Shown piece after piece: positions 9,098 to 43,767 of a DNA stretch of 64,000 nt; the first letter of the stretch is position 1; each line of letters starts with the position of its first letter. Source of the DNA: Naegleria gruberi (lineage: Eukaryota); assembly GCA_000004985.1 (NCBI GenBank), contig GG738922.1, one strand, 5' to 3'. A program made the translations under genes and the position numbers. A model generated the notes under the pieces. It did no database searches. It was not told the DNA's origin and saw only the letters and a program-made list of their open reading frames with translations.

Positions 9098-9952
9098 ATG
9101 CACCATCACAAACCACTGTTCCCACTCGAAAACCTTCCCTCACAAGTTGTATCACACTTCCTGATGAATAATAAAAAGTTACAAGAGGAGAGAATCGAGT
9201 GGATAGAATCAGAGACGAGAAAAATTGATGAATTTACAGAAAAAATTACAAAACACACTTTACTTATCCCGACTACGAATGGTGATGATCAAAAAGCACA
9301 AGAAAAGATTATTAAATTAAATGTTGGTGGAAGTGTTTTCACTACCAATTTGAAAACATTGCTGAATGAAAAGGATACATTCTTTAGTGGATTTTTTAGT
9401 GATCGATTCTTACCACAAATACAAAAGGTGGAAAGTGAAAGTGGAGTAGAGGATGTCTATTTCATTGACAGGAATGGAAAGAATTTTTCATTAATTTTGG
9501 ATCATTTGCGAGGACATAAAATTGGACCAAAGATTCAAAATTTGACTGGAATTGAATTATTTGAATTTGTGGAAGATGTTGCTTTCTATCAAGTTCGCTC
9601 TATTTATCCTTTATTGAATGATGAATCTAAGGAAATGTTAAGGGAACATTTTTCAATTGAGTTGGAGGAAGCACCTAAAGTGAAAGAAACAATACCAATT
9701 GCAAATAATAGACTAAAGCTTACATCACATGCTTTAGCGAATATTCCTCAAGAGTATAAGAGAATGGTGTTGGGCGAAACTTTACATCCTTTTGTTCTCG
9801 AATTGGAACCTACAAACGCCGGCAAGATTACAGGAATGCTTCTAGAAATGGAAACAAACATGATCTTGAATTGGATTGAGAATGATGATGAATTGAAGAA
9901 GATTGTTGAACAAGCAGTTACAGTTTTAAAAGGGAGTTCTTTATATAATTAA
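9098..9952 (+). CDS. KCTD-type BTB/T1 domain protein with C-terminal PABP-type MLLE (PABC) domain
   Basis: T1/BTB: IIKLNVGGSVFTTNLKTLL...VYFIDRNGKNFSLILDHLRGHKI. MLLE: LGETLHPFVLELEPTNAGKITGMLLEMETNMILNWIENDDELKKIVEQAVTVLK, containing the KITGMLLEM hallmark. Confidence 0.75.
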   Translation: MHHHKPLFPLENLPSQVVSHFLMNNKKLQEERIEWIESETRKIDEFTEKITKHTLLIPTTNGDDQKAQEKIIKLNVGGSVFTTNLKTLLNEKDTFFSGFFSDRFLPQIQKVESESGVEDVYFIDRNGKNFSLILDHLRGHKIGPKIQNLTGIELFEFVEDVAFYQVRSIYPLLNDESKEMLREHFSIELEEAPKVKETIPIANNRLKLTSHALANIPQEYKRMVLGETLHPFVLELEPTNAGKITGMLLEMETNMILNWIENDDELKKIVEQAVTVLKGSSLYN

Positions 9953-9978
9953 TTATTTATCATATACTTGAATAAACT

Positions 9979-12900
9979 TTATTTTTTATCATAAACTTGC
10001 ACAAACTCAGTCTTACTTCTTCCAAAGCATTCAGGAGAATACATTTCTTCCATATAGGTTGAAGGTGCTACAAACGAACCTAAAGTAGTAGCTCTGCAAA
10101 TATAGCTGTAAACATGTGTGCCTTCATATAAAATTCTTGCAAATGCTTCAACTCTTTCATCTCTAATATTTTGATTTTCGAACCATTTGAAATAATGGTT
10201 ATTTGCCAATTCATTTTCGTTACCCCCATTTCCAAAATTAGTGAGCTGTGTATCGATTTCTGGATTGACAACTTCTAAACCTGCTGGCAGTTTATCAACA
10301 AGAGCAACATTATATCTTCTAGTAGGATTACATATTGTAATATTAACTCTGACCAATTCGCCTGACTTCACCTTCCATGTCTTGGTATTCTTATCAAACT
10401 TGACATCGTCAGGATTGGTGATTGCTTCATATACTCTAGAAATTGAGAATCCTCTATCTAAAGATTTGAGAGTAAATTCTTGAGGAGTGTAAGATAGAGC
10501 AATTCTATAATAAAGTCTTCCAGTACCATTCTTTGTCAAGAGGAATGATTTCTTTGAGTCATTTTCATCTGGATTGATGACTTCCTTATTAATATCAGCT
10601 CTTGGAACAAAAGCAGTTACCGGTAATGATGTAATCTTCTTTTCTCTACTTCTTCCTTTCCAAGATTGATTGCCCATAAAGAAAGTCTCCTCTGGCCTTG
10701 TAGAATCAACAAGCCATGTATTAACATTCATATCTGGAACTTCCTTCTCGAATATCTTGAAATAATCGGTGAGGGAAATGAGACAGATAGAGTTTTCTTG
10801 AGTATTATACCAACGACCATATCTATTTGCATTTCTGGCAGCCAACAGGCTTCTTACCAATTTTTGGATAATATCACTACTATCTTCTCTATCAATTTCC
10901 ATTAAACATCCCAAAACAACAGCATCAGTTCTTGTATTTGAATGCAGCATGACCATTTGTGCAAGTTCATTATCTTCATATCTAGTGATAAAGTGTGCAT
11001 AGATACCAGAGTCAATTGTGACATTTTCCTTAAAGTATGACTTGATGGCTTCCAACCATTGATAAACTGAAATCTTTTCATTGATGAATTTTGCAAAGAA
11101 ACCCTTCTTCTCTTCAACTTGTTCCTTCTTACATCTGTGAATAGACATTGCAAGATAAGCAGCAGATTCTGGATTCAATTCTTGAGTCAACTCTGTTAGG
11201 GTATTGTAGTGGTCAAGAATACCTTCACACAAGGAAATTACCTGTTCCTTGTCAGTTTCACTATCAGCTAACAATGAGAGAATATAAAAAGCGTATGCTT
11301 TGATAGTGTCTTTAACAGATCTTGGCCAAATAAATCCAAAGAAGAATAAACTTGAAATATTCTTCAAAATGGATTTTGTTCTGGACAGTATTTGATCTGG
11401 AATTTTGTATCCTTCAGATTTACATTTGGCAAAACAAAAAGCAACATGGCATGTCAAGAATGGATCTCCAATCAAATTATTACTCCAATAAGAGAAGGCA
11501 CCATCATATCTTTGACGCTCAAATAATCTGGCAAGATTGGTATCAATGAAAGTGTCAATCTCTTCTCTTCCAGAAATGTCCATCAATTTTTTGAGTTCCT
11601 CAGGTGTGTAGAATTGCAAAATCATTTCCTTCATGGAAACAATACCTAAAAGCTTTGAGGCAATTTGTTCATTACATTCATATGGATATGAGTAGAGATA
11701 AATGAGAGAATCAGTCAATGTTGAAAGGGCTGTTGTGGAGGTACTAACACTAAATTCACCGAAATGAGCCAAGATATTCTTTGATGGAAGTGAAATTGGT
11801 TGTAATACATTATCATTAGTTTCACTAACATCTCCATAAGTTGCAAAAGCCTCATTAGTTGCTGGAGTGAAAATTTTAAAGTCATTCTTTACAGCATCAG
11901 ACCATCCAACCATTTCGTCAGCAATGCCTTGTTTTTCAGGATTCTTAGCAACAGCTCTAACTACTCTAACTCCAATATTGATAAGAGCCTTACCACATTT
12001 GAGAACTTGAACTGGAATTCTAACTTCTTTTCTTCCTTGAGCTGGAATAACCACTGAAAATCCCTTCTTTCGTTGATTCTTGTTCTTTCCATTGAAAATT
12101 CTGAGATTTGTTACTTGGCAAACGAGTGATAGTGTCAAATCTGAATCTGTTTGATTTTGTAGAATATATGTCAAATCACACAAATCGCCATAATTCAAAA
12201 ATCTTGGAAGGGATGGTCTTACGGCAATAGGTAAATTGGTTGTAATTGCAGAACTACCAATACCAATTAAATCTTCTTTGGCATTCACTACAGCAGTTAC
12301 TTTGAATTTGGTGAGTGCATCAGTCAATTTGAAATCAAGTGTTATAGATCCATTTTCATCCGTTTGAGCGAATCCAATAAATGCAGCATCTGGTTTGAAA
12401 TTATTTCTTATTTGGAATACATCTTTTCTGTCATTCATTGATGGCATTGCACAACCACGACAACCACCACATATAGCACTGCTACTACTGCTACAAGTAC
12501 ATTCACATTCATTACAACTATGTTTTCTACAACAAGAAAACGAAGGAAGGAATAAACAAGCTGCCTTCTTATGAAATCTGACGCTTTGACAAGACATGTC
12601 ACAACATTGATTTTCCAAATCATCTAAAACTTGAATTTGTCGCCCGGACCCGTCATACCCTGCCCTATTTGATAATCTGAGTGATGTTTGAGTTTGCTCC
12701 ATGATTTCTGCATCTCGTTGGTTCTTTCTAGGGTAAAGCCAGTATCTCACGCTCTCCCTGATTGAATCACAATTGAAACTGCACGAATTATTAATTACAA
12801 ATAATGAGAGCGGGTCTTCAATCGAATGATTTGCCATATCCAATACAGCTTGATCACAAACAATCAAACAAACCTCAGAATTTGGTACAGTATTTCCTTG

Positions 12901-15900
12901 CTTATCTTTCACAAGAACAGTGACTGATGTCTCTTTTCCAGGGCTAAGTATAGTATCCTTTGGAGTGACAGTAACATCAAGCTCGTGGGAGCTCTTAGAA
13001 ATTTGAATATCAATAGATCCAGAAGCCTGAGTTGGATTAACTCTTGTCATGTCATCAATATCAACATAGTTCTCCTTACCAACCAATTGTACCTTAACTT
13101 GTATATTTGGTCTATATTCCTTCTTGATTGGAATTGTCAACTCGTACATTCCTACATCACTACTAATATCAAATGTTTCCTGTTTGATTAGCCTATTACA
13201 TAAAATCCAAGCGACTCCTGTACAATCACCACTAAAAGGAGAGACAATATAGACTTTGGCATCCTCTCCAGGTTGGTATTCATCATTTTCAAATTTGTTG
13301 GTAATTAGTTCGATACCAGATGTATTCAGAGATGCATAACCCTTTGATGTTAAATGTTCCCTATAGCCCAATTTACGAATAGGAATACTGCATCTGTTAA
13401 TACCTGATCTGTGCTTTGGTGTTTCATCTTCTTTTACTTCGCACAAAATGGCATACTCTCCATAAGCAGTGTCCTTGTTTTCCTCACTAAGCTTAAATGT
13501 ATGTAAAAGTGGTTGATCTTGTGAAGTGAGTTTGATTTCCTTGATTGGATTTGTGGTTTCCCATTTTTCATAACCCTTCGAATCGTAACCAAACTGAACT
13601 AATTTTACAGATATTGGAACGTCCTTCACCACCTTACCCTTGATATCTGTAACAACAAAGAAACAGTCGATATTTTCATCAGATTTCATAACTACTCTTT
13701 TAGTGCAACGAACTCCAATGTAATATTTGCAAGAGTGGAGAATAACCTCACTAGATGTTCTTTGTGTTTGTCTATTGATGTCCTGAACATTGGCATTGCA
13801 ACTGACACTAATAGGACTAGTTACCAACTTTTCTGGATCCCATAATATTATTGACAGATGATCATCACCATTGGAATCAGTTGTCCCATTAATATTACTG
13901 TAAAGTCTGGTTTTTGATTTTACACTATTTAAAAGTCTATCCAGTTTGTAATTATTTCTAAGATCTGTTTCTTGGAAAATGTAATTACTCCATCCTTCTG
14001 GGGTGAAATTTTTAGAAGTGGTATTGAGAGAATAGTTCACAGTTGAATTAGAGAGGCCTCCTCCACTATAATATTTGGCACTGACCTTATTGATGAACTT
14101 TTCACCAACAAACAAATCAACCTTTTCTGATGAAGGAATAATACTGCTACTGACAGTATATTCTCTAGTTCTAAACTCTTCAACTTTAAAAGTATGATTC
14201 CAGCATACTGTTTGCTGGAATCGTTGACCGTCAAAACTAAATGTGACTGAGTGAGAACCTAAATTAACATTATCTGGTATAACCAAATCCAAAACAAAAG
14301 ATCCATTCGCACTCAATTCAACTTTACCATCCAAGTATTTAACTCTGCTATTGTCGAAAACTTCATAAGTTACCTCTTTCTTACTTATTTGAGTGGTGAT
14401 TGCATAGGTACCATAATTCTCAGAATCCTTGTTAGTGTCGTATATCAAGTTTCTGATGAAACCCTTAATATGTACAGTTTCATTTGGCTTGTATAACCCA
14501 CGATCATTAAAAATGTGAGCAATATTAGTGTCTTGACGAGTTGAGTGAACATAAACGCTTGGATTAGTGTAGACAACTTGATCTGTGTCTTTAGATACAG
14601 CAATGGAAACGTGATGATAACCCTGTATGCATGTAAAATAGGCCATACCCCTTTCATTTGTTTTTTCAGTAACTGATCTAACGTCCATTGTTCTAGTCTC
14701 CTTATCAGGATAATAGTTCTTGGTGTCAAACATTGTTACTTCAGCATTGTCAACAGGTTTTCCCGTTGAGAAATCAGTTACAAATACACCTAATTTTTCT
14801 CCAGCGATACTCACAACATCGACACACAAATTTGAAACTTGCACCCATCTAGCTTGATATCCAGAAAATAATGAGTATAAAATTGATCTTTTTGGTTTGA
14901 AATGTACCAATACACTGCCTGTTTTTCCATTTTGAAGAAATTCTGGCAACATAATCTTGGTAGAAACAGTTCTGTCCTTTACAAAGTTTTCAGTTTGTAC
15001 TTTTTGATCAAAAACTTGCTTTCCAAAACTATGAGGTTTTCTTGGGTTCCAATCAAAATGTGCATAATTATCATAGGAATTAAAGAATGTTTTTGGAGCA
15101 AACTTTGGGTATACACATTCTTTGTACATTTCTATAGGATCAACTTGATTGATAATAACATGAGTTTCTTGAATATTTACAGAATCAAAGTAAAGAAATG
15201 GTTCATTGTTATCAAAAAGGCATGGTGGCATGACACTAAAGGTAGGGAGTGTCATGTTGAATTCCCTATCCTCACCTGAGACTTCGAAAGTGGCTGAATA
15301 ATCACTTTCCATGATTTGGTTATAAATATCTGGAACTCCTTTTAAAATTTTAACACTATATTTCTCCCTAGCGAGAGTATCACCTGCGATTATAATAGTA
15401 TTACCATCAGCTTTTACCTTGTAATTATTAAGGACTGGTTCAAGTTGAACAAATTTTTCAATGCTGTCTACCTTTTCCAAATCAATAGGATTGTTGAATC
15501 TGAATGTAAATGAGCAACCTGGATAAATTTCATTAAAGAAAAAATGTTTCTTTGGATAATGATCAGAAACTACCATTTTGGAATAGCCACGCACACCAGT
15601 GGATGTTTCATGAGTAGATACAAGTGGACCTTCCAAACTCTTGAATCCTGGTCTCAACCAAACACTCAAATATTCTCCTAATCCAATTTTACGATAATTC
15701 TTTCCAGCATGTAAAGTATCGTTTGCAACAAGTAACTTGATCCACATACATCTCTTTGGATCATGAACATTTTTGAGACTTCTGTAATACAAGTTATAAA
15801 CATATGGGAACTTTTTGGAATAATCTGTTTCTGCCAACATTTTGGAAATTATTGAGGTGTCTTCCAATAATTCCACACCAATTTTGTAGCTAGAAACTTT

Positions 15901-16800
15901 CATTTCCAACTTTTCTAAAACACTTTGCTTGTCAATATCTTGATCAAATTGGAAGAACATGAATGGGAGTTGAGAAATTGGAAAGCTGTTACCTGAAGGG
16001 ATACAACTGAGAATTCTAGCTGTTGGTGTCTTAAACGTTGCTGATAAATCATCTCCTAAAGTATGTCCATGCACGGACTTGGTCTTTTCTTTTATAACCT
16101 TGTAGGAAAACTCGGTTGATCTGTCAAATCTGAATCGAGGTTGAAACACTAAAGATTTAGTACCAATCCATTTCCACTTTCCTTCTTTAACATTTTCTGT
16201 TACTGGACTAATTTCAATAAAATCAATCTCTTCAAATGATTTAGTTTCTCCATCAAATTCTTCAATCATGTCATGACTAAATGTAATGGAAATGAATGGC
16301 ACAGATGCAACTTCTGAATTTTGTTTACCAGTTGGCACTGCTCTAACAATTCTAAACTTCTCTTCCTTCTTCTTTTCCAAAGCATTTTGAGCAAGTTGAT
16401 TTCCGATACTATTCACCATTTCATCAACTGCATTCACAGATTTTGGAGGAAATTCAATTTGATTTTTGACTTGGAAAGTACCAGGTTCTGGTGGTTTGAG
16501 AGTTTGTTCTCTGATCAGGTAATTTTCTTGAAGAGATTGTTCTTGATCCTGTTGATCCTTCATCAATTCTCCCAACAAGTTTTCCAAACTCTCCTCATCT
16601 AAATCTTCAATTTTAAATACTGAATCATCAATTATTTTGTTTTCTAGAGAGGCTTGTTCATCATGATCGGATGCAAATTGTTGATCATCATTCTCTCGGA
16701 TCAGAGCAGATACAACATCCTTGCTGTCTCCCTTCTTTACATGGAGAACCAATTGTTGATAATCGAGCAATTCGCTATCAATTTCTTCTTCAATCTTCAT
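9979..16800 (-). CDS. alpha-2-macroglobulin/TEP family large protein (2273 aa) with non-canonical thioester-like motif
   Basis: RNNFKPDAAF...GSITLDFKLTDALTKFKVTAVV matches the A2M core consensus R.xFPETW...PDSITTW. PYECNEQIASKLLG corresponds to the thioester region (CGEQ replaced by CNEQ). A Cys-rich block sits in the bait position. There is an acidic 400-aa N-terminal extension and no obvious signal peptide. Confidence 0.55.
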   Translation of the reverse strand: MKIEEEIDSELLDYQQLVLHVKKGDSKDVVSALIRENDDQQFASDHDEQASLENKIIDDSVFKIEDLDEESLENLLGELMKDQQDQEQSLQENYLIREQTLKPPEPGTFQVKNQIEFPPKSVNAVDEMVNSIGNQLAQNALEKKKEEKFRIVRAVPTGKQNSEVASVPFISITFSHDMIEEFDGETKSFEEIDFIEISPVTENVKEGKWKWIGTKSLVFQPRFRFDRSTEFSYKVIKEKTKSVHGHTLGDDLSATFKTPTARILSCIPSGNSFPISQLPFMFFQFDQDIDKQSVLEKLEMKVSSYKIGVELLEDTSIISKMLAETDYSKKFPYVYNLYYRSLKNVHDPKRCMWIKLLVANDTLHAGKNYRKIGLGEYLSVWLRPGFKSLEGPLVSTHETSTGVRGYSKMVVSDHYPKKHFFFNEIYPGCSFTFRFNNPIDLEKVDSIEKFVQLEPVLNNYKVKADGNTIIIAGDTLAREKYSVKILKGVPDIYNQIMESDYSATFEVSGEDREFNMTLPTFSVMPPCLFDNNEPFLYFDSVNIQETHVIINQVDPIEMYKECVYPKFAPKTFFNSYDNYAHFDWNPRKPHSFGKQVFDQKVQTENFVKDRTVSTKIMLPEFLQNGKTGSVLVHFKPKRSILYSLFSGYQARWVQVSNLCVDVVSIAGEKLGVFVTDFSTGKPVDNAEVTMFDTKNYYPDKETRTMDVRSVTEKTNERGMAYFTCIQGYHHVSIAVSKDTDQVVYTNPSVYVHSTRQDTNIAHIFNDRGLYKPNETVHIKGFIRNLIYDTNKDSENYGTYAITTQISKKEVTYEVFDNSRVKYLDGKVELSANGSFVLDLVIPDNVNLGSHSVTFSFDGQRFQQTVCWNHTFKVEEFRTREYTVSSSIIPSSEKVDLFVGEKFINKVSAKYYSGGGLSNSTVNYSLNTTSKNFTPEGWSNYIFQETDLRNNYKLDRLLNSVKSKTRLYSNINGTTDSNGDDHLSIILWDPEKLVTSPISVSCNANVQDINRQTQRTSSEVILHSCKYYIGVRCTKRVVMKSDENIDCFFVVTDIKGKVVKDVPISVKLVQFGYDSKGYEKWETTNPIKEIKLTSQDQPLLHTFKLSEENKDTAYGEYAILCEVKEDETPKHRSGINRCSIPIRKLGYREHLTSKGYASLNTSGIELITNKFENDEYQPGEDAKVYIVSPFSGDCTGVAWILCNRLIKQETFDISSDVGMYELTIPIKKEYRPNIQVKVQLVGKENYVDIDDMTRVNPTQASGSIDIQISKSSHELDVTVTPKDTILSPGKETSVTVLVKDKQGNTVPNSEVCLIVCDQAVLDMANHSIEDPLSLFVINNSCSFNCDSIRESVRYWLYPRKNQRDAEIMEQTQTSLRLSNRAGYDGSGRQIQVLDDLENQCCDMSCQSVRFHKKAACLFLPSFSCCRKHSCNECECTCSSSSSAICGGCRGCAMPSMNDRKDVFQIRNNFKPDAAFIGFAQTDENGSITLDFKLTDALTKFKVTAVVNAKEDLIGIGSSAITTNLPIAVRPSLPRFLNYGDLCDLTYILQNQTDSDLTLSLVCQVTNLRIFNGKNKNQRKKGFSVVIPAQGRKEVRIPVQVLKCGKALINIGVRVVRAVAKNPEKQGIADEMVGWSDAVKNDFKIFTPATNEAFATYGDVSETNDNVLQPISLPSKNILAHFGEFSVSTSTTALSTLTDSLIYLYSYPYECNEQIASKLLGIVSMKEMILQFYTPEELKKLMDISGREEIDTFIDTNLARLFERQRYDGAFSYWSNNLIGDPFLTCHVAFCFAKCKSEGYKIPDQILSRTKSILKNISSLFFFGFIWPRSVKDTIKAYAFYILSLLADSETDKEQVISLCEGILDHYNTLTELTQELNPESAAYLAMSIHRCKKEQVEEKKGFFAKFINEKISVYQWLEAIKSYFKENVTIDSGIYAHFITRYEDNELAQMVMLHSNTRTDAVVLGCLMEIDREDSSDIIQKLVRSLLAARNANRYGRWYNTQENSICLISLTDYFKIFEKEVPDMNVNTWLVDSTRPEETFFMGNQSWKGRSREKKITSLPVTAFVPRADINKEVINPDENDSKKSFLLTKNGTGRLYYRIALSYTPQEFTLKSLDRGFSISRVYEAITNPDDVKFDKNTKTWKVKSGELVRVNITICNPTRRYNVALVDKLPAGLEVVNPEIDTQLTNFGNGGNENELANNHYFKWFENQNIRDERVEAFARILYEGTHVYSYICRATTLGSFVAPSTYMEEMYSPECFGRSKTEFVQVYDKK

Positions 16801-17201: not shown

Positions 17202-17282
17202 CTGCAGAAGGTGGGATTTGAACCCACGAAGCTTGCACAGTAGAACTTGAGTCTACCCCCTTTGACCACTCGGGAACCCCTG
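17202..17282 (-). tRNA. tRNA-Leu (anticodon CAA), class II with long variable arm
   Basis: The reverse complement reads GCAGGGGTTCCCGAGTGGTCAAAGGGGGTAGACTCAAGTTCTACTGTGCAAGCTTCGTGGGTTCAAATCCCACCTTCTGCA. The anticodon stem is GTAGA/TCTAC with loop CTCAAGT, and the T-arm is GTGGG-TTCAAAT-CCCAC. The acceptor stem has two G.U pairs. An oligo-T run follows the 3' end. Confidence 0.8.
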
Positions 17283-17398
17283 CTTCACATTAAAAATGAA
17301 AATAAACCAAATTTATCACATTTCGGAATGTTCGGCAAAGCATTTAATGTCAAATAGCTCATTATTTCAAGATTTGAAATGATAAAATAGTTTGATAT

Positions 17399-19059
17399 TT
17401 ATTTGAAACACTTGTTGACAATATTCATAAAGAATCCACCAACTGGAAGAATATAACGAGTAATAATATTATCACCAAGGGTGGTGAGCAAGAGATTTCT
17501 CTTAGTATCAGAGAATGGTGGATATCTGAGATCCAAATCAAGCCAGTACTTCTTCTTCAAGACAGACTTTTGGTGAGTGAAAGTATTGAAAGAGGCATCA
17601 CCATGATAAGCTCCCATACCACTGTGTCCAACACCACCAAATGGAAGATGTTCTTCACCAACTTGGAGAACACATTCATTGATACCAACAGCACCAGATT
17701 GAGTAACCTTCATGATTCTTTCAACCAATTGTTGATTCTTTGAATAAATATACAATGCCAATGGCTTAGATCTTTGATTAATGAATTTCAAACCAGCATC
17801 AAGATCTTTCAAAACGCTTGGATATTCAGTTGATTTAGATTCTCCATAAATAATGATTGGCAAAAGAGGTCCGAAAAGTTCTTCTTGCATGACAATATCA
17901 TTTTCCATATCAGGATTGAGGATCAAGGTTGGTTGTACGTACTTGGCTGATTCATCTGCATTACCACCATAGATAACCTTATCCTTGACTTGATCAATAA
18001 TTGCCTTAAGACGTTTTACATGTGTACCTGTGACAATTCTGGAATAGTCTGGAGATTTGGATGGATCTTCACCATACATTTTAGTGATGGCTTCCTTGAG
18101 GGCTGGAATGAATTTGTCAGCAATTCTACCATCCAACAAGACATAATCTGGAGCAACACAAGTTTGTCCATTATTGAATGTCTTACCCCAGGCAATTCTG
18201 TTGGCAGCAACTGAAATATCAATATCCTTGTCAATAATGAGTGGTGATTTACCTCCAAGTTCTATTAAATATTATCCACAATTCCAATAATTTAAATCAT
18301 TTGTTATTGAAATTTGCATTATGTGTGATAGTTCATTAATATCAACTTTGATCAACTAAACTTACCCAAAGTTACAGGAGTCAAATGTTCAGCAGCAGCA
18401 CGCATAACAATCTTTCCGACTCTAATGCTGCCAGTGTAGAAAATGTGATCATATGGTTCCTTCAACAAGTTGGTTGTCACAGTTGCATCACCTTCAATGA
18501 CACGAACATATTTCTCATCAAAATATTTAGGAATTAGTTTAGCAAAGGTAGAGGAAACATTTGGAGAAACTTCGGAAGGTTTCAAAATAACCAAATTACC
18601 AGCTGCCAAAGCACCAGAAAGTGGAATAGCCAACAAACTGATTGGATAATTCCATGGAGCAATAATCAGAACAACACCCAAAGGTTCCTTTCTAATAAAG
18701 CCTTCTGAAGGAAGATTGGCAGGATTGACAATATTAACATATTCATCCTTCATCAATCTCTTCAAATCACCCTTCAAGAATTGAGCAGATCCCACAGACA
18801 AACCAACTTCAATGGTTTTTAATGGTTCTGTTTGTCCCAAATCCTTGACTTGAGCTTCCTTCCAATCCTCCTTATTTTCCTCGAACATGGCAATAAACTT
18901 GTCCAATTGTTCTTCTCTCCATTCACGATCTCTAGTGATACCAGTTTGAAAAGTAGCCTTCATTGATTCAACCAATTCGGCATATGGTCTATCACTCTTA
19001 TCATCAACAATAACATTGTTTTGTTCCTTGTTTTGAAACACTGCAGATCCTCCGATCAT
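17399..19059 (-). CDS. aldehyde dehydrogenase, ALDH3 family (2 exons)
   Basis: Exon 1 is 19059..18366 and exon 2 is 18261..17399. The intron is phase 1 with a GTAAGT donor and AG acceptor. The splice joins PVTL|ELGGKSP to regenerate the canonical ALDH motif. Other ALDH signatures are EEHLPFGGVGHSGMG and ELFGPLLPII. Confidence 0.85.
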
Positions 19060-43419: not shown

Positions 43420-43492
43420 TAAAAGAACCCTCCCCCTGGTGGGCTCGAACCACCGACCTGCAGATTAACAGTCTGACGCTCTACCGACTGAG
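43420..43492 (-). tRNA. tRNA-Asn (anticodon GTT)
   Basis: The reverse complement reads TCCCCCTTAGCTCAGTCGGTAGAGCGTCAGACTGTTAATCTGCAGGTCGGTGGTTCGAGCCCACCAGGGGGAG. The acceptor stem is TCCCCCT/AGGGGGA. The anticodon loop CTGTTAA and T-arm GGTGGTTCGAGCCCACC match eukaryotic tRNA-Asn. T-runs lie downstream. Confidence 0.85.
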
Positions 43493-43767
43493 CTAAGGGG
43501 GAATACATGAAATAGAAAAATAATCTTTATACAAATCATAAATCTAACATAGGTCACTGCCATGCTTAACGTGTTTCTTTATTACTTGAAAGGAGAAATT
43601 ATTATTGCTTTTACTTACATATTACAATTTCTGTTTCCATTTGTTGTAAAATCAATCCACTTATTTTACATTTGCATCACGTTTGTTTTTGTGTGCAAAC
43701 ACGTTTGTTGCAACAAAAAATATAAATAAACTAAGCAAAAAATAGTAGAAAATGTATTTAAATCTAG

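Follow-up and report, generated by a model that had tools for sequence, protein, structure and literature searches.

The window analysed here is a stretch of 64,000 nucleotides from Naegleria gruberi (assembly GCA_000004985.1, contig GG738922.1), and the gene in question is an alpha-2-macroglobulin (A2M) gene on its minus strand. The open reading frame (ORF) corresponds to NAEGRDRAFT_59848 of N. gruberi, with 100% identity over 100% of its length at NCBI. It is named a 'hypothetical protein' by NCBI and an 'Alpha-2-macroglobulin domain-containing protein' by UniRef. By this match, the window is nuclear DNA of N. gruberi. The probability that a frame of this length would be open by chance, at the base composition of the window, is 2e-73. 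The coordinates of the gene, of the domains and motifs of its product and of the adjoining features are collected in Table 1.

Table 1. The A2M gene, the parts of its product and its surroundings in the window (residues refer to the A2M protein).
Feature	Residues	Window positions	Strand	Basis or remark
Bacterial-type A2M ORF, 2273 residues plus stop, intronless, complete		9979..16800	-	ORF call, Pfam, NCBI match
Hydrophilic acidic N-terminus (net charge -19), largely disordered, without signal peptide	1-150	16351..16800	-	
Big_5 bacterial immunoglobulin (Ig)-like domain	430-505	15286..15513	-	Pfam; extra N-terminal domain typical of the ~2000-residue bacterial subfamily
Macroglobulin (MG) domain MG2	761-862	14215..14520	-	Pfam
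A2M_BRD, bait-region domain scaffold	1170-1322	12835..13293	-	Pfam, PDB alignment
Bait region	1346-1462	12415..12765	-	Between conserved H/S-x-R and (I/V)R-x-NF anchors; hypervariable
Cysteine cluster, 13 Cys in 52 residues	1399-1450	12451..12606	-	Spacings CC, CxC, CxxC
Pfam A2M domain (MG7 equivalent), with TDALTKF	1474-1558	12127..12381	-	Pfam, PDB alignment
All-helical thioester domain (TED)	~1693-2017	10750..11724	-	AlphaFold2 model, Foldseek, PDB alignment
YPYECNEQ, CxEQ thioester motif	1705-1712	11665..11688	-	Cys1709, Gln1712, lock Tyr1705
bMG10, bacterial-A2M-specific C-terminal domain	2117-2257	10030..10452	-	Pfam; replaces the metazoan receptor-binding domain
Stop codon of convergent BTB+MLLE gene		9950-9952		26 bp from the A2M stop
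tRNA-Leu(CAA)		17203-17283	-	Between the aldehyde dehydrogenase gene and the A2M start codon, ~400 bp upstream of the ATG
Aldehyde dehydrogenase, two ORFs		17399-18139 and 18352-19059	-	Pfam Aldedh positions 29-234 and 279-461
tRNA-Asn(GTT)		43429-43503	-	Farther along the window

The domain architecture of the protein was examined using Pfam (whole protein, matches reported at E<=1), NCBIfam, phmmer against PDB sequences, and AlphaFold2 (AF2) modelling combined with Foldseek. Five A2M-type Pfam domains were matched, namely bMG10 (2e-28), A2M_BRD (2.5e-17), MG2 (1.4e-13), A2M (3.6e-10) and Big_5 (1.9e-7). Together with the fold matches, these bear out an earlier note on this DNA, made from the sequence alone, which had assigned the protein to the A2M/thioester superfamily. 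The profile check named in that note gave a divided result, as the A2M profile was matched whereas Thiol-ester_cl and A2M_recep were not, and A2M_TED was likewise without a match at E<=1. The NCBIfam scan gave zero matches. The TED is visible only through the AF2 structure model and the PDB alignment. The note had also reported an A2M core signature and a thioester-region match; both are present, the 'PDSITTW-like' block as the diverged TDALTKF of the Pfam A2M domain and the thioester region as YPYECNEQ, although the latter is the part that the Thiol-ester_cl profile leaves unmatched.

The nearest structures and the nearest sequences are both bacterial. A phmmer search against all PDB sequences returned only Salmonella SaA2M and E. 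coli ECAM/YfhM. The AF2 half-models (residues 1150-2273, predicted local distance difference test (pLDDT) score 79.6; residues 1-1160, pLDDT 75.3) both gave 4U48, 5A42 and 4ZIQ as their best Foldseek matches, with E values of 2e-48 for the C-terminal half and 3e-30 for the N-terminal half, and human A2M, CD109, TEP1 and C5 ranked below the bacterial A2Ms. Beyond Heterolobosea, the nearest sequences are proteins of ~2000 residues from Acidobacteriota (Pyrinomonadaceae, Blastocatellia), Chloroflexota, Myxococcota, Planctomycetota and others, with 27-36% identity to the A2M protein and coverage of up to 97%. This bacterial family is large, with at least 571 loci in GTDB species genomes and 12,063 50%-cluster representatives at E<=1e-3, and it is a longer relative of ECAM with added N-terminal Big_5/Ig domains. 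Because of the bMG10 C-terminus, the bacterial nearest sequences and the Salmonella and E. coli nearest structures, sequence comparison and modelling place the protein in the bacterial type and not with the metazoan or Dictyostelium thioester-containing proteins (TEPs), so that the 'TEP-like' label and the comparison with Dictyostelium tep genes that had been proposed for it do not hold.

Orthologs and paralogs were identified in N. gruberi (at least four), N. fowleri (at least three), N. lovaniensis (three found) and Willaertia magna (three). In neighbour-joining (NJ) trees the heterolobosean A2Ms form one clade, within or beside the bacterial family, and the window protein forms a long-branched sub-clade with its 74% identical paralog and its orthologs from N. 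fowleri and N. lovaniensis. One of the N. gruberi paralogs, P0077 (XP_002670374, 1949 residues), is named a 'ras GTPase domain-containing protein' at NCBI. In Pfam it matches bMG10, A2M_BRD, A2M, MG2 and Big_5 and no Ras domain, and the name looks like a mis-annotation, possibly an echo of Dictyostelium CPRas2.

A bacterial-type gene in a eukaryotic assembly raises the question of an artefact or relic, whether contaminating bacterial DNA, a fusion made in assembly or a functionless pseudogene in decay. The closest non-eukaryotic homologs are indeed bacterial, and the NCBI label is merely that of a hypothetical protein. However, the contig is 210 kb long, and on it the locus is flanked by eukaryotic genes and a tRNA. 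On its upstream side, the two aldehyde dehydrogenase ORFs are ~210 bp apart, a distance that fits an intron, and thus a eukaryotic gene structure adjoins the intronless A2M gene; the other flank is occupied by the convergent BTB+MLLE gene and a T4-type RNA ligase gene. The GC content (0.350) and the GC content at third codon positions (GC3; 0.274) equal the values of the adjoining genes, and the A2M gene is now fully at host base composition. Furthermore, its 6.8-kb ORF is intact, and orthologs that are collinear end to end with the bacterial homologs have been kept in four heterolobosean genomes. Bacterial contamination is ruled out by the eukaryotic neighbours and by host GC and GC3, contamination or recent transfer can be dismissed, and an artefact or relic of any of these kinds is extremely improbable.

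Several smaller observations concern the surroundings of the gene and of its bacterial relatives. Just 3' of the A2M stop codon, positions 9953-9979 (minus strand) hold a degenerate repeat of the last eight codons and the stop, which reads KFIQVYDK* where the true end is EFVQVYDKK*. This repeat (TRF period 29 x 1.9) occupies the whole of the 26-bp gap to the convergent gene. Linkage to pbpC, as in the classical ECAM-type operon, is absent among the neighbours in the window and is not expected in a eukaryotic genome. At six bacterial loci inspected, no obvious shared operon was seen, their neighbours being without domain annotation.

The N-terminus of the protein carries no recognisable export signal. 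The maximum of the 15-residue Kyte-Doolittle mean over the first 120 residues is 0.35, compared with >2 in the bacterial homologs, which open with a Sec-type signal or a hydrophobic anchor, and the hydrophobicity scan found no transmembrane-like stretch anywhere in the protein. The lack of a secretion signal had been pointed out by the earlier note, and the intracellular variant that it considered is the best reading. Its description of an acidic head of 400 residues holds for residues 1-150, whereas residues 150-400 have a net charge of +2 and are folded. From about residue 60 the protein aligns motif by motif with the part of the bacterial homologs that follows their signal peptide. The corresponding pairs (Naegleria first) are LDEESLENLL and L..E.EA.LKRLP, KPPEPG and LPPPRTG, FPP in both, VPFISITFSHDM and APxLSITFSQPM, and GKWKWIGTKSL and GKWRWIGTKTL. 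From about residue 150 the AF2 model shows a chain of beta-sandwich domains (an Ig-like/MG array), and the N-half model as a whole matches ECAM/SaA2M. By this alignment, the start of the Naegleria protein appears to be the start of the mature bacterial protein, with the signal peptide alone missing. The suggestion that the N-terminal 400 residues are a mis-joined exon or gene is contradicted by this homology and fold and by the stop codon directly 5' of the ATG.

A signal peptide could in principle be supplied by an unannotated 5' exon. Pfam found nothing meaningful in residues 1-160, even at E<=10. Such an exon is unlikely because of the 5' stop, the mere ~400 bp between the ATG and the tRNA-Leu gene, the position of the intronless N. 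fowleri ortholog, which begins 150 bp past the preceding gene, and the conservation of N-terminal residues among paralogs from about residue 4. These data bear on the alternative of a secreted or lumenal protein that inhibits proteases or opsonises, in the extracellular space or in the food vacuole, and which would leave the cytoplasm by way of the missing exon, an unconventional path or vesicle release and whose bait cysteines would be knotted by disulfides. Every characterised A2M/TEP acts outside the cytoplasm (PMC5764988), and the stretch from the tRNA gene to the ATG contains a short ORF, MMSCAWSSLSIIG, that might in principle be an exon. This alternative is nevertheless unlikely, given that no hydrophobic N-terminus was found in ~30 eukaryote-like relatives, including the complete transcriptome ORFs of the amoebozoans Sappinia pedata and Pellita catalonica, that the intergenic space in N. 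fowleri is so small, and that homology to the mature bacterial N-terminus begins right after the Met.

The thioester motif of the Naegleria protein is well placed within its family. In the PDB alignment YPYECNEQ lies over YPYGCLEQ of SaA2M, and the A2Ms of E. coli and Salmonella use CLEQ. The residue at -4 (Tyr1705, equivalent to the Salmonella 'lock' Y1175 that is mutated in SaA2M Y1175G, PDB 4U4J) is conserved, and Cys1709 is the sole cysteine conserved from bacteria through Naegleria. The substitution of CNEQ for CGEQ had been taken as the possible mark of a non-covalent variant. However, the defining motif of the family is CxEQ (PMC5764988), most commonly in the form CSEQ, and 38 of the 40 aligned homologs have C[STAN]EQ in this column. 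Among a further 64 bacterial homologs of full length, 7 have CNEQ itself, one of them in the exact octapeptide YPYECNEQ. Within Heterolobosea, CTEQ is found in N. fowleri and N. lovaniensis and CSEQ in Willaertia. With Cys, Gln and lock Tyr all in place, the non-covalent interpretation is not borne out, and the sequence prerequisites for a thioester appear intact. ECAM produced without a signal peptide or lipobox is still reactive with methylamine and proteases (PMC3328433), which suggests that a thioester can form in a cytoplasm.

A look-alike of this motif was observed in the second heterolobosean clade (P0005, P0070-P0077), in which all members have a conserved 'YCGEQ' ~290 residues downstream of the true thioester motif. 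The same column reads 'FAGEQ' in bacteria, and the resemblance to the metazoan CGEQ is non-homologous. The look-alike is absent from the window protein and could mislead motif-based annotation.

The cysteine cluster lies, as the earlier note had recognised, in the bait region, between A2M_BRD and A2M and in a hypervariable segment that is disordered in the AF2 model from residue 1378 (pLDDT <50 over residues 1378-1469). Cysteine makes up 1.5% of the protein outside the cluster, and the binomial P for the cluster is 9e-13. Bait length and sequence vary in every homolog compared. Two N. gruberi paralogs (P0001 and P0002) are 74% identical overall and 22% identical in residues 1401-1450, with cysteine-richness kept, and no other part of the protein evolves as fast as the bait. 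There are 13-17 bait cysteines in the four proteins of the window protein's clade and 9-17 in most of the second-clade Naegleria paralogs. The positions of these cysteines are not conserved across the Naegleria proteins; composition alone is kept. Cysteine-rich baits are also present in the eukaryote-like P0272 (CCRKCCCNCCNCCCKCC), in the fragment P0261 and in P0329 (>20 Cys), whose source is apparently non-Naegleria and GC-richer. None of the 99 aligned bacterial baits (35 + 64) contains a cysteine, and among members whose N-terminus is hydrophobic, scanned with a looser regular expression, 204 of 209 evaluable baits had 0 Cys, with a maximum of 2. Cysteine-rich baits were thus found in eukaryotic members only.

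Two trivial origins of the segment were considered and rejected. An unspliced in-frame intron does not explain a segment that is open in frame in four orthologs or paralogs and lies at the variable bait of every homolog, and a microsatellite is contradicted by the sole repeat present, of 9 bp x 2.4. Extreme cysteine-dense baits recur in the signal-less relatives P0072, P0073, P0075, P0076/P0144, P0272, P0261 and P0329. A second sulphur-rich, low-complexity bait flavour was seen in the eukaryotic clade, the baits of Willaertia P0005/P0071 and N. gruberi P0077 being Met- or Gln/Met-rich (MMKMMSMAPMM, QMQMQMQMPM). Two Naegleria paralogs have Met/Gln-rich baits.

Cysteine is also enriched outside the bait, at 1.4-1.7% in the Naegleria proteins against 0.2-0.5% in bacteria. 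The 34 non-bait cysteines of the Naegleria protein mostly occupy buried A/V/I/L/S positions of the bacterial proteins, the pattern to be expected if they are free thiols and the compartment is reducing. As for the bait itself, its cysteines might, speculatively, bind metal as a thiolate cluster, act as a redox switch or be S-acylated, giving a 'cysteine string' that tethers the bait to a membrane. Dense cysteine clusters are common in secreted proteins, in keeping with a secreted inhibitor. However, the bait cysteines differ in position even between paralogs that are 74% identical, unlike those of disulfide knots.

The same cysteines underlie a further alternative, in which the protein is intracellular and is no trap. 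It would then serve in thioester tagging or adhesion (opsonising intracellular bacteria or viruses), as a metal or redox buffer or sensor, or as an S-acylated anchor. The CC, CxC and CxxC spacings, at 25% Cys, resemble those of metallothioneins and cysteine-string motifs, and the Met-rich baits of Willaertia and some paralogs are also sulphur-rich. In addition, Dictyostelium CPRas2 offers the precedent of a COG2373/A2M scaffold that hosts a signalling domain (PMC2430557). On the other side, Pfam found no match in the isolated cysteine-rich baits of four Naegleria proteins at E<=10, the segment's rate of evolution is that of classical bait regions, and the bait position, lock Tyr, CxEQ and MG10 have all been kept. 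A purely non-trap role is therefore judged to be quite unlikely.

Further evidence comes from relatives outside Heterolobosea, which were found through a search with a Willaertia protein and an exhaustive phmmer scan. These comprise the amoebozoans S. pedata and P. catalonica (transcriptome ORFs), Rotaria rotifers and unidentified eukaryotic contigs, and their copies are of the bacterial type as well. The overall cysteine content of the eukaryote-like members is ~0.8-2.7%, whereas the bacterial members have a median of 0.3% and a leader. The most informative relative is P0080 (JGI metagenome 3300062347, locus L083 10001-16096), which lies on a 146-kb contig with the eukaryotic neighbours RdRP, Tudor-SN and RGS. 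Its residues 1234-1305 form a complete ubiquitin (PF00240, positions 1-72 of 72, E 7.6e-25) that ends in LRLRGG and sits exactly at the bait position, between A2M_BRD and A2M. Judging from its sequence, this ubiquitin would seem to offer deubiquitinases or ULPs a bait within the protein, and P0080 would then be a nucleo-cytoplasmic protein in which proteolytic cleavage is still the trigger. The ubiquitin bait is the strongest support, albeit indirect, for an intracellular trap function in the eukaryotic clade, and it argues both against secretion and against a role other than trapping. A search with P0080 gave no second A2M with a ubiquitin-like bait among 120 hits, and the architecture is so far a singleton.

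Taken together, the A2M protein is probably a horizontally acquired, intracellular thioester protease trap. The gene would be a heterolobosean descendant of the large thioester-bearing ('type I-like') bacterial A2M family, acquired from bacteria before the Naegleria/Willaertia split and then duplicated. All parts of the trap are kept, these being the N-terminal Ig/MG array, the exposed, disordered and fast-evolving bait, MG7/A2M, the helical TED with CNEQ and lock Tyr, and MG10. Two features would have changed. The first is the address, as the signal peptide was presumably lost, as in all eukaryotic relatives found, leaving a protein that is most likely cytoplasmic; the second is the bait, now a cysteine-packed segment. 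An endopeptidase that enters the cytoplasm, from a leaking food vacuole or lysosome, an intracellular bacterium or a virus, would cut the bait. Bait cleavage would then release the conformational lock and expose the Cys1709-Gln1712 thioester, and the protease would be captured covalently, as for ECAM and SaA2M. The cysteine-rich bait might act as a lineage-specific specificity or regulatory element, although this is speculative. Of this account, the sequences and models show the homology and architecture, the conserved motif, the lack of an export signal, the pattern across the family and the cysteine statistics, whereas thioester formation, location, trapping and the part played by the bait are inferred.

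A number of points weigh against this account. A thioester might not be stable in the glutathione-rich cytoplasm, and cysteine-dense segments are no less characteristic of secreted modules rich in disulfides than of cytosolic ones. It was by hydrophobicity that a signal was judged to be absent, and secretion might be unconventional. The TED and thioester region of the protein is not recognised by Pfam. Furthermore, P0260 (2273 residues), which belongs to the same long sub-clade and shares 46% identity with the window protein over the C-terminal half of the latter, lacks a CxEQ match and has just 2 Cys in its bait; both CxEQ and the cysteine-rich bait can therefore be lost, and neither is obligatory in the clade. 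Finally, the NJ trees carry no support values, and any number or direction of transfers among eukaryotes read from them would be provisional.

A broader and rather doubtful proposal, which we put forward tentatively, is that amoeboid eukaryotes have domesticated a bacterial periplasmic A2M into cytoplasmic thioester 'decoy-substrate' traps for cell-autonomous immunity or surveillance, with baits re-tailored to intracellular proteases. The lineages concerned would be Heterolobosea, some Amoebozoa, the protist source of P0080 and possibly bdelloid rotifers. One lineage would present a whole ubiquitin to deubiquitinases or ULPs, and Naegleria would use segments of cysteine-string or metallothionein-like character. 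With lipid or metal attached, the Naegleria baits may mimic the proteins that pathogen effector proteases attack. If this proposal is right, innate defence by thioesters would extend beyond animal extracellular fluids and the bacterial periplasm.

Thioester proteins (A2M, TEPs and complement) are the textbook extracellular defence of animals, and their bacterial homologs guard the periplasm. If the intracellular trap is real, thioester chemistry would have moved into the eukaryotic cytoplasm of phagotrophic protists, with the motif kept and the bait diversified. The family would also provide a clean case of a bacterial defence protein re-purposed after horizontal transfer. Naegleria includes the 'brain-eating' N. 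fowleri, in which at least three copies were found, and for these amoebae a pan-protease trap might matter in controlling their own abundant cysteine proteases or in resisting intracellular bacteria. Specialists would find cytoplasmic thioester traps surprising; the case for them is built from sequence inference alone.

Public databases already list the protein and its A2M domains, and bacterial A2Ms have been studied in depth. The literature searched contained no description of NAEGRDRAFT_59848 or of cytosolic A2Ms, and CPRas2 of Dictyostelium alone turned up. Multi-copy, signal-less, bacterial-type thioester A2Ms in Heterolobosea and other amoeboid eukaryotes, their cysteine-rich baits and the ubiquitin bait of one relative therefore appear to be undescribed in that literature.

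Among known systems, the metazoan A2M, A2ML1, CD109, insect TEP1 and C3/C4/C5 share the superfamily fold and the logic of bait, thioester and trap with the Naegleria protein (Foldseek E 1e-42 to 1e-34). These proteins are secreted and have CGEQ and a receptor-binding (A2M_recep) or C345C C-terminus, none of which is found in the Naegleria protein, and they are more distant from it than the bacterial A2Ms. CPRas2 (Elias & Novotny 2008, PMC2430557) is a COG2373 bacterial-type A2M-like protein in a protist, a precedent for such scaffolds within eukaryotic cells, and is associated with a normally cytosolic domain. It differs in being much larger and in carrying an inserted, circularly permuted Ras GTPase. 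CPRas2 was not among the relatives retrieved in searches with the Naegleria protein, and it is therefore probably a separate acquisition or lineage.

Type II bacterial A2Ms (P. aeruginosa MagD and E. coli YfaS) have the macroglobulin scaffold with a bait in common with the Naegleria protein and trap proteases (PMC5764988). However, they do so non-covalently within the mag operon complex and lack the CxEQ that the Naegleria protein keeps. The type I A2Ms ECAM/YfhM and SaA2M (4U48, 5A42, 4ZIQ) are closer in plan, with the same MG array, bait between BRD and MG7, TED with CxEQ and lock Tyr, and bMG10, despite just 13-17% identity in structural alignments. Compared with these, the Naegleria protein is ~600 residues longer, with Big_5/Ig domains added at the N-terminal side and a head that is acidic and disordered. 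It lacks a signal peptide, a lipobox and a pbpC neighbour, has a cysteine-rich bait and is encoded in a eukaryotic genome. The bacterial proteins of ~2000 residues annotated as 'alpha-2-macroglobulin family' or 'Ig-like domain-containing' (COG2373; 'YfaS' at JGI) differ from it in their Sec-type signal or anchor, their content of 0.2-0.5% Cys and their nearly cysteine-free bait, and they share with it the same domain order, C[STAN]EQ and the bait anchors.

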